Below, piece by piece: positions 30,001 to 33,000 of a stretch of 35,501 nucleotides of DNA. Position numbers: made by a program. The stretch is from Candidatus Iainarchaeum sp. (GTDB lineage Archaea; Iainarchaeota; Iainarchaeia; Iainarchaeales; JAFCCJ01): assembly GCA_043816965.1 (NCBI GenBank), contig JBDRHK010000022.1, positions 1-35,501 on the forward strand. The letters run 5' to 3'. The first letter of the stretch is position 1. Each line of letters starts with the position of its first letter.

Positions 30001-33000
30001 GCACCTTATGATAATTTCCTTATCGCATTTCGGGCACTTGAATTCCACATAATCGCCTGTTACTTCTTTATTGCAGGTAGTGCATATTTTCATTCTAATC
30101 CCCCAAAAATCATTTACAAAAGCTTAAAATAAGCAGTATTAAGTAATTCTATTGTAATAGCTTTAAAAAGCTTATATTGGGCCAATCTGCTAATTGTTCG
30201 CACCGGAAACCTACTCTCAAAACCATATACAAACAAATAAAATTTTATTATTCTATGGAAATTGAAATATCTCCTGATCTTGCCGAAATTTGTGGAATTC
30301 ATGCAGGTGACGGGTATTTAAGAGACGACGGCAAAAGAAGGGAACTGGATATTAGCGGAGGAATTGAAGAGCAAGACTATTATAATAACCATGTTGTACC
30401 TTTGTTTGAGAGAGTTTTTAATATTAAAATCCAGCCAAGGTTCTTCCCACACAGAAATACCTATGGTTTTGTGATTAGAGATAGGGAAGTAATTAAATTC
30501 ATGCATTCTCTGGGATTTCCTTATGGGAAAAAGACCTTGATGGTTGATGTGCCTGAGTATGTTCTTAGCTCACGTAATCTTGATATTATTTATAGATTTA
30601 TTAGGGGCGTTTTTGATACAGACGGTTGTATTTCTTTTAGAAAACGAGAGGGATCAGGTTATTCAAAAGTTTATCTAAAGAGACACACTTATCCAATAAT
30701 AAACCTCACCACCTGTTCCAAAAATTTGTGGGAAGGCACCTGCAAACTTTTAATGAAAACAGGTTTTCATCCTACGGTTTCTTATACTAAGGCAAAATAT
30801 AATGCCCATAAGAAATATAGGATATTCCTGAGAGGCGATGCCAATATAATAAATTGGATTAACAACATTGGTTTTAAAAATCCAATAAAACTTAACCGAT
30901 TCGTAATATGGAAAAAGTTTGGCTTTATGCCGCCAGGATTAAGCTACAAAGACCAAATAAAGATTCTGAACGGAGATATAGACCCAAATGATTACTATTC
31001 TGACAATCTGCAAATGGAGGAAAACCTGCTTCCCCTCCTTGTTAAAAGAAGACTAAAGGTCATGAAAAACCTCGAATCATTTATTCCTAAAGATTAAAAA
31101 CACAAATATACATAGATTCTTTCGGACCCGTAGCCTAGTCTGGATTTGGGCACTCCGCTTCGGATTCTTCAAAAAGGAGTTACGGAGAGGTCGAGGGTTC
31201 GAATCCCTCCGGGTCCACTTATGAAAATACCTAAATTTACTGGAACTGACAAACAAAAAGTGAACGCAATTGCTAAATGGCTGTATACGGAATTTAAGCG
31301 TGTTCGCGTAACGCCTGAACAAATGAGTAATGATTTATTCAACAGGACGGTGAATAAGGTAATTGAGGAAAAAAAGCTGTGCTATAATGTGCCATGTGCT
31401 GACAGTGCGGGAGTTGCTGCTGAAGCACTTTTAGAGAATGGAATTCCTGCATGGATTGTTCTTGAGAAGAAAATTCATAAGAATGGGGAAGAATCATTCC
31501 ATCTCTCCACAGAGTTTATTGTTGATGGTAAGCCCAATCATTTAAAGGTAACAAGGTCCGAGGTAAGTATCGTGTCGGGGAATAGGACGACAACCTCCTA
31601 TCGCCCGGTAGTAAAAAAGGTTGAGATTGTTCAACCAATAGGTGCAAGATCAGTATTGAGTCTTTTTGGTGTAAATTCAAGAGACGATATGGCGAAGGTC
31701 TTGAATGGGTTTGACTGGAAAAAAATGGACAGAAACTTTAAAAAACAAAAGTCAAGATTGCATTTCAGAATGACTGCTGCTAGGAGGTTTTTTTGGCAAA
31801 AATATGCGGGAATTTTTAGCAGATGGAGAAGAAAATAACCTATTCAAACTCTTCCTTGCCCCTAAGGTAAACAGTCAAGAATTCCCGGAAGCCCCTATTT
31901 TTCTTGTATAGTTCAATAATCCCCTTTTCATCCAGCACAACCGCCCTTTTCCGAAGTGCCTTTCTCACATTTTCCTTCTCTGCCTTTTTCAGTTTTTTCA
32001 GGTAATCTGAAATGAAATTTCTCGCATCCCCATATTTCCTCTCAACTTCCAAAACCCATCTGCCCTTCTCTATCCTAGGCCCTGCCACAACTTTTTTATG
32101 GGCACCCAAAAACCTCTCACTGTTATCTTTGTCAGTGACCTCAGGCCCCACTTTCACAGCAGCCCTTTGCAGAATTAGGGATTCCAACTCAATCACAATC
32201 AGCATCCTCTTTCCTTCCTCCAGCCATTCATCACTTCTTATAACTTTGAAATCAAATTCCTCCAATTGATTCACCATCTTTTTTCCCAGCCGCCTAATTT
32301 GCCCCCATAAAATATCCTCCAGAACTTTTGGATAGCCAATCTCAACAGCCAGTAATTCCTTCTTCCCCAAAATCTCCTTTACCTTTTTAACGCTCCATGG
32401 CTTTTCCTTCCGCGGGAAAAAGAATTTTTCAGAGGGCTTCTCCAAAAAGGCGCGCGAGGCGGCAACAATCCTGCTGAACTGATTCAAAGAAAGGGCGGCC
32501 GCGACATTCCTGTTCCTGTCCACTGGGTCAATAACAATCAGCGGGGAATCAAACTTCTTTATTGCCTCGGTCTTTACCAAATAATTCTCCAAATCAATTA
32601 CCTCATTCCTGCCCCAATTTGAAATTCCTTTCAGTGCCTTCTCAAAGGAACCATATTTTATAATCAGCAATTCCACAACATAACCCGGAACACTGCCCAT
32701 CCTCAAATCCGCGCCATAGGCCCTGATTCCTTTCAGGAACTGCCTCAACAGCCTCACTTCCCCCTTTTGTTTCTCCTTCAATTTCCCCTTAACATACGCC
32801 GCATGGAACGGGCTTCTGTCCACTGAACTCTTAAGCAATTCCGCCTTTTCCACCCTGTAGCTGGGAACTATCTCAACATTAAAGCCATTAATAATCCCCC
32901 GAATATAGGGGTGCTCAGAATATGCCTTCTCCCATTTGTGCCCGCGGAAAACCCGTTTACCAATTCTCAGGCCTTCCCTCTCAAAATCCTTTCTCCCTAA

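Follow-up and report, generated by a model that had tools for sequence, protein, structure and literature searches.

Free-standing LAGLIDADG genes adjoining tRNA genes in Candidatus Iainarchaeum sp.: probable homing cassettes that carry a replacement tRNA

The tRNA-Arg locus and its features

The window analysed here is a stretch of 35,501 nt (contig JBDRHK010000022.1) from the genome of Candidatus Iainarchaeum sp. (GCA_043816965.1; G000), and a second genome of the same genus (G152) was used for comparison. A LAGLIDADG endonuclease gene lies directly upstream of a tRNA-Arg gene, in the following setting:

29669..30093, minus strand: left flank, genes for EF-1-beta and an HVO_2753-type zinc-finger protein, which lie beside tRNA-Arg(TCG) order-wide
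30184..31123, plus strand: Arg cassette of 940 nt (putative promoter, endonuclease gene and spacer), missing from the collinear G152
30199..30222, plus strand: conserved putative promoter motif (CGCACCGGAAAC..CTC.CAAAA); an A/T-rich TATA-like box separates it from the ATG
30255..31097, plus strand: free-standing two-motif LAGLIDADG endonuclease gene, 280 aa (ATG at 30255, TAA at 31095-31097; Pfam)
31095..31123, plus strand: 29-nt spacer including the TAA, with an A/T-rich box about 24-31 nt 5' of the tRNA
31124..31217, plus strand: tRNA-Arg(TCG) with an 18-nt intron at 31164-31181 (Rfam, 53.1 bits; ARAGORN)
31221..31838, plus strand: 205-aa ORF, weakly transglutaminase-like, beginning 3 nt past tRNA-Arg
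31840..33219, minus strand: right flank, 459-aa ORF for a putative CCA-adding enzyme, relatives of which lie 3' of tRNA-Arg elsewhere

The endonuclease ORF matches LAGLIDADG_3 with 27 bits (cut-off 22.5), and 26 nt separate its stop codon from the start of the tRNA. ARAGORN calls the tRNA at 31124-31217 when introns are allowed and misses it in a default run. The motif at 30199..30222 would be the promoter of the endonuclease gene. A regular-expression search found 10 copies of this type in G000, seven of which precede short LAGLIDADG frames, and an eighth falls within a long frame that matches PF14528 below threshold; the motif also occurs 5' of a radical-SAM gene, a PIN gene and a 373-aa ORF. 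The A/T-rich box of the spacer occupies the expected place of the tRNA-Arg TATA box and may act in its promoter, and the string ..CCTAAAGATTAAAAAC.. in the spacer region is kept in long-tailed Arg orthologues. The 459-aa ORF was named by eye from its sequence, and we take it to be a CCA-adding enzyme. The 205-aa ORF is found neither in G152 nor at any of the 23 other Arg loci.

An earlier note on this DNA had described the genes as free-standing, within neither an intron nor an intein, and this description holds. The Arg ORF lies upstream of the tRNA and outside any intron, the tRNA intron being merely 18 nt long. Pfam matches LAGLIDADG_3 alone, with no intein (Hint) domain in the protein, and the window has no Rfam match to a group I or II intron. 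Thus, the gene is embedded neither in a BHB or group I intron nor in a host protein. Gene calls and Pfam also gave no integrase or transposase inside the 940-nt insert.

Linkage to tRNA genes within the genome

G000 contains 28 Rfam tRNAs and 26 distinct frames with a PF14528 match, 14 of them short (up to 518 aa) and 12 long and intein-type. The 3' end of seven short frames overlaps an Rfam tRNA or lies at most 27 nt from one, and an eighth, on contig C31, stops within a 3' piece of tRNA-Lys(CTT), the next Rfam tRNA being 113 nt off. Against these 8 tRNA-touching frames of 14, chance would give about 0.1 (binomial P for at least 8, 1.3e-14). All 12 long frames lie at least 314 nt from the nearest tRNA. 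The six other short frames (L001-L006) have no tRNA or credible RNA nearby in Rfam (E<=1) and are on other targets, or on none found. All eight gene-tRNA coordinates listed in the earlier note were reproduced, and each of the eight proteins scores above the PF14528 cut-off. Its range of 27-34% for identity among the paralogues widens on recomputation to 24-37%, as measured for 21 of 28 pairs with a BLASTP match; the other seven pairs have none.

Partner tRNAs across genomes

Clade counts for the order were taken over 196 Iainarchaeales genomes, 24 of which hold the Arg type. An Arg(TCG)-type tRNA lies directly past the ORF at 22 of 24 Arg loci; at one of the others the tRNA is cut by a contig end and at the second the ORF lies at the end of the DNA. 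The Ile clade, present in 8 genomes, is tRNA-linked at 6 of 9 loci, namely all six with at least 42% identity, and always in convergent orientation. A convergent Thr(GGT/TGT) is called at 22 of 30 loci of the Thr clade, with two more probable mis-calls (22-24 of 30), and the Gly clade is tRNA-linked at 17 of 22 loci by ARAGORN and at one more by eye (17-18 of 22). These re-counts agree with the partner fidelity claimed before (Arg 18/20, Thr 23/30 and convergent, Gly 15/20), and for Ile they return the same figures. In a DPANN-wide set for the Arg clade (GTDB records titled Iainarchaeum, Woese-, Pace-, Nano-, Micr- and Aenigmatarchaeota), a same-strand tRNA follows the ORF at 50 of 60 loci examined and is called Arg(TCG) outright at 35, the same tRNA partner being kept at 41-76% protein identity across several lineages.

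The further claim, that each clade is specialised on one tRNA identity and one orientation, proved too strict. The Gly clade is found with each of the three anticodons and in either orientation (8-9 co-directional, 9 convergent), and the partners of the Lys clade are Lys(CTT), Lys(TTT), Phe(GAA) and a convergent Met(CAT). Nor is the family confined to tRNA genes: a paralogue on contig C103, which ranks first in similarity to the Arg protein and third to the Ile protein, sits at the 5' end of a thiolase gene, the start of which is duplicated. This is the cassette design applied to a protein gene.

The endonuclease protein

The Arg protein carries the motifs ..ICGIHAGDGYL (D19) and ..IRGVFDTDGCI (D121, D123), and the aspartates of GDG and FDTDG (D19, D121 and D123) are invariant in all 23 Arg orthologues. 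The other seven tRNA-linked paralogues, read by eye, have acidic residues at both LAGLIDADG motifs. By motif, catalytic integrity of the tRNA-docked genes is therefore supported.

The AF2 model of the Arg protein (pLDDT 89.7, pTM 0.88) predicts a pseudo-dimeric alpha-beta-beta-alpha-beta-beta-alpha fold. In fold it most resembles the TliVMA intein endonuclease, I-Tsp061I and I-DmoI, and the top Foldseek matches (7qsu, 2dch for I-Tsp061I, and I-DmoI entries) all have a probability of 1.00. The same fold is shared with the rRNA-intron-encoded I-DmoI and I-Tsp061I and the intein enzymes TliVMA, PI-PfuI and PI-SceI, with E-values from 8e-11 to 1e-7 and a TM-score of 0.74 normalised to I-Tsp061I; common to all are two LAGLIDADG helices with acidic residues. 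However, the Arg protein differs from I-DmoI, I-Tsp061I and the intein enzymes in lying outside introns and inteins and in having a C-terminal extension of about 65 aa with a conserved W.KFGF.PP...IL.G..DP..Y. At sequence level its matches are to intein endonuclease parts only: a family-profile search of the PDB returned two intein entries and nothing else, and NCBIfam, where no model scores at its cut-off, gave such matches below cut-off.

Among the 13 closest Arg orthologue pairs with defined dS, dN/dS is 0.07-0.18, and the synonymous sites of the orthologues are near saturation. The low dN/dS shows strong purifying selection on the Arg genes. With its invariant aspartates, low dN/dS and predicted I-DmoI / I-Tsp061I-like fold, the Arg enzyme looks active.

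Empty sites, degraded copies and descent

Contig C41 of G152 matches window positions 27500-30183 and 31841-33300 at 84-86% identity. The tRNA-Arg of G152, a 74-nt copy lacking the intron, begins directly where window position 30183 ends, so that 30184-31123 is missing and the junction falls at the tRNA 5' end. G152 has 3 PF14528 matches against 33 in G000, all three beside tRNAs, and a clear orthologue for one of the eight G000 cassettes (74% identity).

The orthologous Arg locus in relatives has the order EF-1-beta, zinc finger, endonuclease where present, tRNA-Arg and putative CCA enzyme. Plain empty sites account for 11 of 20 sampled loci without the endonuclease. G144 retains a 27-nt stump of the resident tRNA type, and G146 has the replacement tRNA of G144 behind the same promoter without the endonuclease. 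The gene has an internal deletion and a frameshift in G067, is 5'-truncated in G102, and in G138 survives as a relic of its last codons and the spacer only. Presence and absence of the gene at one orthologous site, with degraded copies, are thus observed, as in a homing cycle. Congener empty sites, degraded copies and a patchy spread together indicate that the genes behave as mobile elements tied to tRNA genes. Four candidates for a decayed endonuclease, in the gaps between zinc finger and tRNA-Arg of G070, G071, G077 and G062, were rejected as an unrelated antisense ORF family.

The Arg tree mostly tracks host families, with f15 monophyletic at 98/96. G000 (family f1) is nested in the f12 clade, and G069 (f12) joins f30/f31 (99/98), its congeners G066 and G072 being placed in the main f12 clade. 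Endonuclease identity to G000 is 51-76%, apart from one locus at 44% without the EF-1-beta flank; for the flanking EF-1-beta it is 31-62%, and the endonuclease is the higher at 20 of 21 loci with both. Because the tree follows host families and synonymous sites are near saturation, much of this history may be vertical descent with loss, and neither the tree nor the dN/dS comparison of orthologues caught a recent transfer of the Arg cassette.

Foreign tRNAs and resident stumps

Near the left end of the window lies a second cassette, of the Gly clade:

1070..2112, plus strand: putative promoter motif as in the Arg cassette (1070-1093) and 328-aa LAGLIDADG gene (1126-2112)
2037..2107, minus strand: complete tRNA-Gly(CCC), foreign in sequence type and in convergent orientation to the endonuclease gene
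2117..2135, minus strand: 19-nt stump that matches the G152 gene exactly and represents the 5' end of the resident tRNA-Gly(CCC)

The 328-aa frame runs through the tRNA-Gly antisense, and the upstream flank shared with G152 resumes past the stump. At the Thr locus of G000 a foreign tRNA, sharing 54 of 76 positions with the G152 tRNA-Thr, is accompanied by a 32-nt resident 3' stump that is 100% identical to G152. At the Val locus the T-arm adjoining the ORF is foreign, the rest is resident-like and an 8-nt stump is left. Thr-type stumps occur in 4 more genomes, three loci having the order tRNA, ORF, 3' fragment. Stumps were found by eye or with a tRNA panel, as had to be the case because they come from a differing resident tRNA.

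Linked tRNAs differ from resident ones at Arg, Gly, Thr and Val. The tRNAs at Gly, Thr and Val are foreign copies, in whole or in part, that came in with the endonuclease gene. The same is probable for Arg, where the D-loop and intron of the G000 tRNA resemble those of endonuclease-bearing G072 from another family; the tRNA-Arg(TCG) at 31124..31217 is thus probably the cassette's own copy. The foreign Val T-arm, the whole foreign Gly and Thr tRNAs and the stumps point to co-conversion of flanking target sequence. No donor of the G000 tRNA-Thr closer than 58 matches was found among 24 endonuclease-linked tRNA-Thr loci. An 11-mer search for duplicates of the linked tRNA-Arg within 1.5 kb of 22 of the 24 Arg loci (the other two gave no tRNA pattern) returned one 12-nt match, at L028.

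Junctions fall at tRNA positions ~1-5, 19, 27, 41 and 65 and at the 3' end, that is, in the body of the gene as well as at its ends. Since these positions differ between loci they define no cut site, and the description of the targets as predictable was premature. The Ile tRNA is 95.5% identical to its G152 copy, so that a resistant allele is not evident at that locus. An anticodon-loop intron was considered as an immunity mark of endonuclease-bearing tRNA-Arg and rejected as a general rule, f15 introns being present in both classes. What stands of the earlier note's central claim is that the mobility of the endonucleases is tied to particular tRNAs; the adjoining tRNA is not a mere resident docking end.

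The tRNA-Lys locus

On contig C31 the endonuclease gene stops in a 35-nt 3' piece of tRNA-Lys(CTT), and the matching 5' half follows 4 nt later. Between the two halves, pairing is perfect in the anticodon stem and includes one G-U in the acceptor stem, and on this pairing tRNA-Lys(CTT) reads as a permuted or broken gene. A fold of the region has z = -1.64 and lacks a clear bulge-helix-bulge motif. A tRNA-Lys(TTT) 4 kb away has two introns, neither of which is in the congener.

Proposed mechanism and alternative explanations

The observations are probably best explained by a selfish cassette, made up of its own promoter, a monomeric two-motif LAGLIDADG homing gene and a linked tRNA, that spreads by target-replacing homing. 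The tRNA would probably be both target and cargo. The enzyme would cut the cognate tRNA gene in cassette-free genomes, and repair of the break would use the cassette-bearing copy as template. The endonuclease gene would thereby be copied in with all or part of its own tRNA, replacing the resident gene with one presumably immune to cutting, which overall would amount to intronless homing with replacement of the target gene. As the 3' end of the endonuclease gene abuts the tRNA, recombination would rarely part the two, and in the long-tailed Arg type the final codons and stop seem also to serve as tRNA promoter.

The cassettes might instead be mobile without the tRNA being the nuclease target, settling at tolerated or recombination-prone spots (integration hot spots, or strong promoters and terminators), with stumps left by unrelated rearrangements or other elements. 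Integrases and other elements classically land at tRNA genes. A recombinase element with a piece of tRNA-Thr next to it is described by Sugahara et al. (2012; PMC3293823). In addition, a TnpB-like ORF occupies the Arg locus in G104, junction positions vary and the Ile tRNA shows no replacement. However, each clade keeps one tRNA amino-acid identity despite differing flanks, orientations and anticodons, a pattern that a generic hot spot would not yield; the 940-nt insert lacks an integrase or transposase, a foreign tRNA adjoins the endonuclease, and the resident tRNA is interrupted internally. This explanation is considered unlikely.

Domestication is also improbable, that is, a LAGLIDADG protein with a tRNA-linked host function, such as a DNA-binding transcription factor of the adjacent tRNA gene or a maturase-like pre-tRNA helper, retained by the host instead of spreading through homing. 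The strong purifying selection with saturated synonymous sites, the constancy of the partner tRNA at 41-76% identity across several DPANN lineages, a conservation better than that of the flanking EF-1-beta, an Arg tree largely parallel to host families and the overlap of the ORF end with the presumed tRNA promoter would all suit such a role. Yet the Arg type occurs in 24 of 196 genomes only, the congener without the gene keeps its tRNA at the same site, and degraded, truncated or nearly deleted copies adjoin intact tRNAs. The presence of introns is uncorrelated with that of the endonuclease gene, and paralogues dock in either orientation, one of them on a protein gene. Maturases often lose their catalytic aspartates, and here the aspartates of both motifs are invariant.

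Errors of MAG assembly or of gene prediction (chimeric contigs at tRNA repeats, chance ORFs) are hardly credible as the source of the pattern. Every genome used is a MAG, and repeats of tRNA type can lead to wrongly joined contigs. However, dozens of independent assemblies show the same architecture, AF2 models the proteins with high confidence, and among contigs from four public DNA runs, which cover short pieces of 29600-31900 with none spanning the cassette, short ones match the ORF end, spacer, tRNA and downstream sequence without differences (X1, 31092-31314). In none of these runs was an empty allele seen alongside the cassette, which counts neither for nor against homing, and the list of runs with this sequence includes no RNA run.

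Relation to known systems

Archaeal homing endonucleases are known from rRNA introns and inteins. Outside archaea, a mobile mitochondrial endonuclease ORF in the fungus Allomyces macrogynus is reported to have been inserted at the end of the essential gene atp6, bringing a foreign replacement end and leaving the displaced original one as a stump. That target is a protein-coding organelle gene, whereas the cassettes here lie on archaeal chromosomal tRNA genes, often bring a whole replacement tRNA and take either orientation.

SegB is a free-standing GIY-YIG homing endonuclease in the tRNA gene cluster of phage T4; its recognition site takes in the conserved T-psi-C stem-loop of a tRNA gene, and its homing moves its own gene and neighbouring tRNA genes, erasing recipient markers of the tRNA region (PMC2330249). 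The free-standing gene beside tRNA genes is common to both systems. However, SegB is a single phage gene of the GIY-YIG type with demonstrated cleavage, and the abstract of that report mentions no tRNA stumps, whereas here a radiation of LAGLIDADG clades in a cellular genome, each tied to one tRNA identity, is accompanied by resident-tRNA stumps and cleavage is predicted. In Caldiarchaeum subterraneum, a 1.8-kb mobile sequence with a predicted recombinase has been inserted next to a piece of tRNA-Thr(GGU), and another copy of this tRNA, with an intron, adjoins them (Sugahara et al., 2012; PMC3293823). The tRNA fragment next to inserted mobile DNA resembles the stumps described here; unlike the present cassettes, the element as described there has no homing endonuclease and belongs to no family with clade-specific tRNA partners. 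A search of the full-text literature, whose coverage excludes most subscription journals, found no paper describing tRNA-docked archaeal endonuclease cassettes.

Significance

The cassettes would add a further niche for archaeal homing endonucleases, a free-standing radiation on chromosomal tRNA genes that carries replacement tRNAs. If so, they would be a natural counterpart to engineered cleave-and-rescue gene drives and would explain the within-genus variability of tRNA genes in these tiny archaea. The old problem of how tRNA genes of archaea come to be disrupted would become open to direct test. Each clade offers a compact LAGLIDADG scaffold together with a conserved candidate target, its tRNA gene. 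A bolder and rather doubtful extension is that the cassettes are natural cleave-and-rescue drives on tRNA genes and also a main engine of tRNA turnover and breakage in DPANN archaea. In G000 the tRNA-Lys(CTT) arrangement on C31 and the nearby tRNA-Lys(TTT) with its two introns are leads in this direction. If this were true, resident tRNAs would be repeatedly overwritten, with small introns carried along and halves left behind, which would give a concrete origin for the intron-rich, fragmented, permuted and split tRNA genes of archaea.

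The Arg locus and its endonuclease

The Arg cassette comprises a free-standing two-motif LAGLIDADG gene with its predicted promoter and a spacer, and lies before tRNA-Arg(TCG) in the following setting.

Left of the cassette, minus strand: EF-1-beta gene and HVO_2753-type zinc-finger gene
30255-31097, plus strand: LAGLIDADG_3 open frame, 280 codons (Pfam 27 bits; cut-off 22.5)
31124-31217, plus strand: tRNA-Arg(TCG) (Rfam 53.1 bits), starting 26 bases past the TAA of the LAGLIDADG frame
31221-31838: 205-aa ORF, weakly transglutaminase-like (21.8 bits; cut-off 23), beginning 3 nt past the tRNA
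Right of the 205-aa ORF, minus strand: 459-aa ORF, putative CCA-adding enzyme, named from reading its sequence

The window is the entire contig C22 of an assembly of 1.34 Mb (109 contigs, 86% complete). Its tRNA-Arg was missed by a default ARAGORN run and was called as Arg(TCG) once introns were allowed, the intron being 18 nt long (31164-31181). The 205-aa ORF is found neither in the same-genus genome (G152) nor at any of 23 other Arg loci, and may be a second indel or cargo. The minus-strand 459-aa ORF is one that we take to be a CCA-adding enzyme.

In the endonuclease, D19 (GDG) and D121/D123 (FDTDG) are invariant in 23 orthologues, and the AF2 model (pLDDT 89.7) has a two-domain LAGLIDADG fold, with the TliVMA intein endonuclease, I-Tsp061I and I-DmoI as its nearest structural matches. 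Sequence matches in PDB and NCBIfam are to intein endonuclease parts only, and the cut-off of every NCBIfam model is missed. Values of dN/dS range from 0.07 to 0.18 in the 13 closest pairs with defined dS (of 253 pairs), for which dS is near saturation (0.9-2.9). Identity to the genome under study (G000) is 51-76% for the endonuclease versus 31-62% for EF-1-beta, and of 21 loci having both, 20 show higher identity for the endonuclease; one more endonuclease locus (44%) lacks the EF-1-beta flank. Most sequences in the endonuclease tree cluster by host family. However, that of G000 (family f1) is nested in the f12 clade, and G069 (f12) joins f30/f31 (support 99/98), whereas its congeners G066 and G072 fall in the main f12 clade.

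Association of short LAGLIDADG genes with tRNA genes

Rfam identified 28 tRNAs in G000, and 26 distinct frames have a PF14528 match. Twelve of these are long and of intein type (846-1649 aa), and the closest tRNA to any of them is 314 nt or more away. The other 14 are short (218-518 aa), and seven have a 3' end that overlaps or lies within 27 nt of an Rfam tRNA, either convergent (Gly CCC, Val GAC, Thr GGT, Ile GAT) or co-directional (Arg TCG, Leu GAG, Leu CAG). An eighth, on contig C31, has its stop inside a 3' piece of tRNA-Lys(CTT). Contact by eight of 14 short frames, against about 0.1 of 14 by chance (binomial P for at least eight, 1.3e-14), confirms the observation of the earlier note that LAGLIDADG genes are docked on tRNA genes. 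All eight proteins pass the Pfam cut-off, and they share 24-37% identity (21 of 28 pairs detected by BLASTP). The remaining six short frames have no Rfam RNA close by at E<=1; one is an IscU-type intein host and another, on C103, overlaps a thiolase gene start.

Among 196 genomes of the order, orthologues of the Arg protein occur at 24 loci in 24 genomes (44-76% identity, E<=9e-74). An Arg(TCG)-type tRNA lies right behind the ORF at 22 of them; at one of the others the tRNA is broken by a contig end, and at one no DNA remains. The Rfam gathering score confirmed the tRNA at 21 of the 24, including that of the window. A wider scan, which used a single genome for each GTDB species, gave 78 loci, of which 60 near-full ones at >=41% identity were examined and 18 partial or weaker rows left out. 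A same-strand tRNA starts -90 to +120 nt from the match end at 50 of the 60; 35 of these were called Arg(TCG) outright and most others are intron-bearing mis-calls. Four of the ten loci without a tRNA have <100 nt of DNA remaining. Record titles include Iainarchaeum, Woese-, Pace-, Nano-, Micr- and Aenigmatarchaeota, among others.

Other clades have partners of their own. A convergent tRNA-Ile(GAT) adjoins six of nine Ile-clade loci, namely all six with >=42% identity; of the 196 genomes, 8 have a member of this clade. The Thr clade has a convergent Thr(GGT/TGT) at 22 of 30 loci, plus two probable mis-calls. Gly-clade loci have a tRNA-Gly in 17 of 22 cases by ARAGORN and one by eye, with anticodons CCC (4), GCC (6) and TCC (7); nine are convergent and eight co-directional (nine with the by-eye locus). 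The Lys clade (14 loci, two copies frameshifted) has Lys(CTT), Lys(TTT) and Phe(GAA) as partners, and convergent Met(CAT) in three genomes. Thus, partners inside a clade mostly share one amino acid, but anticodon and orientation vary, and the proposal of one tRNA identity and orientation per clade goes too far.

The C31 locus has further features. Past the endonuclease stop, at C31:29796-29875 (L008:3297-3376), a 35-nt 3' piece of tRNA-Lys(CTT) is followed after 4 nt by the matching 5' half to the anticodon loop. Between the two halves, the anticodon stem is perfectly paired, and the acceptor stem contains a single G-U pair. Judged by this arrangement, the gene is apparently circularly permuted or broken; orthologous loci have a normal tRNA, and a second tRNA-Lys(CTT) was not found in the 86%-complete assembly. 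The exons of tRNA-Lys(TTT) at C31:25669-25828, mis-called Val(AAC) by ARAGORN, match the intron-less G152 gene but are interrupted by two insertions (introns); tRNA-Arg(TCG) likewise has an intron in G000 and none in G152. Just upstream of the cassette, 34-nt direct repeats (C31:27507-27540 and 28837-28870) surround about 1.3 kb that G152 lacks.

Predicted expression signals and upstream repeat

Upstream of the endonuclease ORFs lie a conserved motif, CGCACCGGAAAC.., and, behind it, a TATA-like box, together their predicted promoter. Ten copies in G000 match a regular expression for the motif, and seven of these stand in front of short LAGLIDADG frames. Looser variants occur in the window at ~18848, before a PIN gene, and ~19725, before a 373-aa ORF. 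The form CGCACCGGAAAC..CCCGAAA with a TATA-like box is located at 18848-18882 and 19725-19756, and also at C35:4488 and C57:1859; it also precedes the PIN-domain gene (18904-19323), the 373-aa ORF (19760-20881) and a radical-SAM gene. This common motif suggests that the endonucleases could belong to one regulon with these genes. In Arg orthologues of the long-tailed type, the final codons together with the stop (..CCTAAAGATTAAAAAC..) lie 24-31 nt ahead of the tRNA, where CCTAAAGATTAAAAAC would occupy the expected place of an archaeal TATA box.

Many orthologues and five G000 paralogues have a 320-nt upstream element; the Arg cassette of the window does not.

C25:6411-6742: 320-nt repeat
C15:57710, C5:8322, C86:7713, C66:232, C26:22972, C7:9771: further copies (four at 91-94% identity, two at 78-81%)

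The repeat precedes endonuclease genes only ~30% identical to each other. It holds a ~150-nt inverted-repeat region over a Shine-Dalgarno-like GGAGGTG, which the inverted repeat would sequester, together with a small ORF and the promoter motif. The small ORF spans 43-50 codons; that of the G000 repeat has 43 and no Pfam match. Its stop overlaps the endonuclease ATG in the Arg orthologues that have the element, as in many relatives.

Replacement tRNAs and stumps

G152 and window 27500-33300 are collinear, with 84-86% identity, yet 30184-31123 is absent from G152. There, the shared flank leads directly to tRNA-Arg(TCG), a 74-nt gene without an intron, and the junction is at the tRNA's first 2-5 bases. 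The G000 tRNA resembles, in D-loop and intron, that of the endonuclease-bearing G072 from another family more than that of G152. Only three PF14528 matches occur in G152, each adjoining a tRNA, and only the Leu GAG cassette of G000 has a clear orthologue there (74% identity).

Stumps, the leftover pieces of resident tRNAs, accompany several sister cassettes. In the Gly cassette (window 1070-2135), the promoter and endonuclease gene are followed by an entire tRNA-Gly(CCC), of another sequence type than that of G152, then by 7 bases and a 19-nt stump with the exact sequence of the G152 tRNA-Gly 5' end; the shared upstream flank comes next. In the Thr cassette (C81), a tRNA-Thr with only 54 of 76 positions in common with that of G152 is followed by the antisense endonuclease gene and a 32-nt stump that has 100% identity to the G152 tRNA-Thr 3' end. 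The foreign part of the Val tRNA (C25) is only the T-arm adjoining the ORF, the rest, including the intron, being G152-like; at the far junction lies an 8-nt stump with a direct repeat of ~12 nt. The Ile insertion (C86) abuts the 3' end of a tRNA 95.5% identical to that of G152, and comparison with G152 revealed no stump. Four other genomes have tRNA-Thr 3' stumps (17-30 nt), next to the promoter in G175, G017 and G149 and at a greater distance in G108. The arrangement at three loci is tRNA-Thr(CGT), ORF, 3' fragment, and G139 has a T-arm stump upstream of its Gly cassette. Fungal mitochondrial mobile ORFs have the same replacement-and-stump design.

The tRNA-less frame at C103:14176-15414 (L004:2677-3915, minus strand) is the paralogue closest to the Arg protein and third closest to the Ile protein. 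Its N-terminus duplicates the start of the thiolase that it overlaps (MRSVSIIG.. and ..VRSVSIIG..), which is the replacement design of the tRNA cassettes on a protein gene.

Variation at the orthologous Arg locus

Across the order, one succession of genes is found repeatedly: EF-1-beta, zinc finger, [endonuclease], tRNA-Arg, putative CCA enzyme. Twenty loci were compared (17 from pattern hits and three partial endonuclease hits), of which 11 are plain empty sites. The endonuclease gene of G067 has an internal deletion of ~165 codons and a frameshift, the copy in G102 is 5'-truncated and lacks both motifs, and the G122 locus stops at a contig end. In G144, a 27-nt stump upstream of the cassette exactly matches the G133 tRNA type at its 5' end and differs from the G138 tRNA by one inserted base. 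Its congener G146 has the same replacement tRNA behind the same promoter, without endonuclease gene or stump. Only the final endonuclease codons and spacer are left in G138; such terminal relics were present in two of 50 scanned loci without an intact endonuclease gene (G138 and G067). The empty, stumped, decayed and relic loci form the series expected of a homing cycle of invasion, decay and loss.

Other loci among the 20 carry unrelated ORFs. At L107 (G104:C32:1-1700), a 411-aa TnpB/IS605-OrfB-like ORF lies between the zinc-finger gene and tRNA-Arg(TCG), the endonuclease position elsewhere. Five f12 loci (L101, L102, L115, L116 and L099, from G070, G071, G077, G062 and G067) have, between the same genes, a small basic antisense ORF (~115-205 aa; common ..FNRTRFYA..-like motif) that is present once or twice.

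The closest experimental analogue is T4 SegB, a free-standing enzyme that recognises the T-psi-C stem-loop in tRNA genes and carries neighbouring tRNA genes along (PMC2330249). A tRNA-Thr fragment is tied to a recombinase element in Sugahara 2012 (PMC3293823). Full-text literature searches gave no account of LAGLIDADG genes that are free-standing and docked on tRNA genes of archaea. The earlier interpretation was right in kind, these being predicted mobile homing endonucleases specialised on tRNA genes, and its mechanism can be improved from docking only to replacement of the tRNA by the cassette. The tRNA is presumably both target and cargo, with the cassette replacing the tRNA that its endonuclease would cut.
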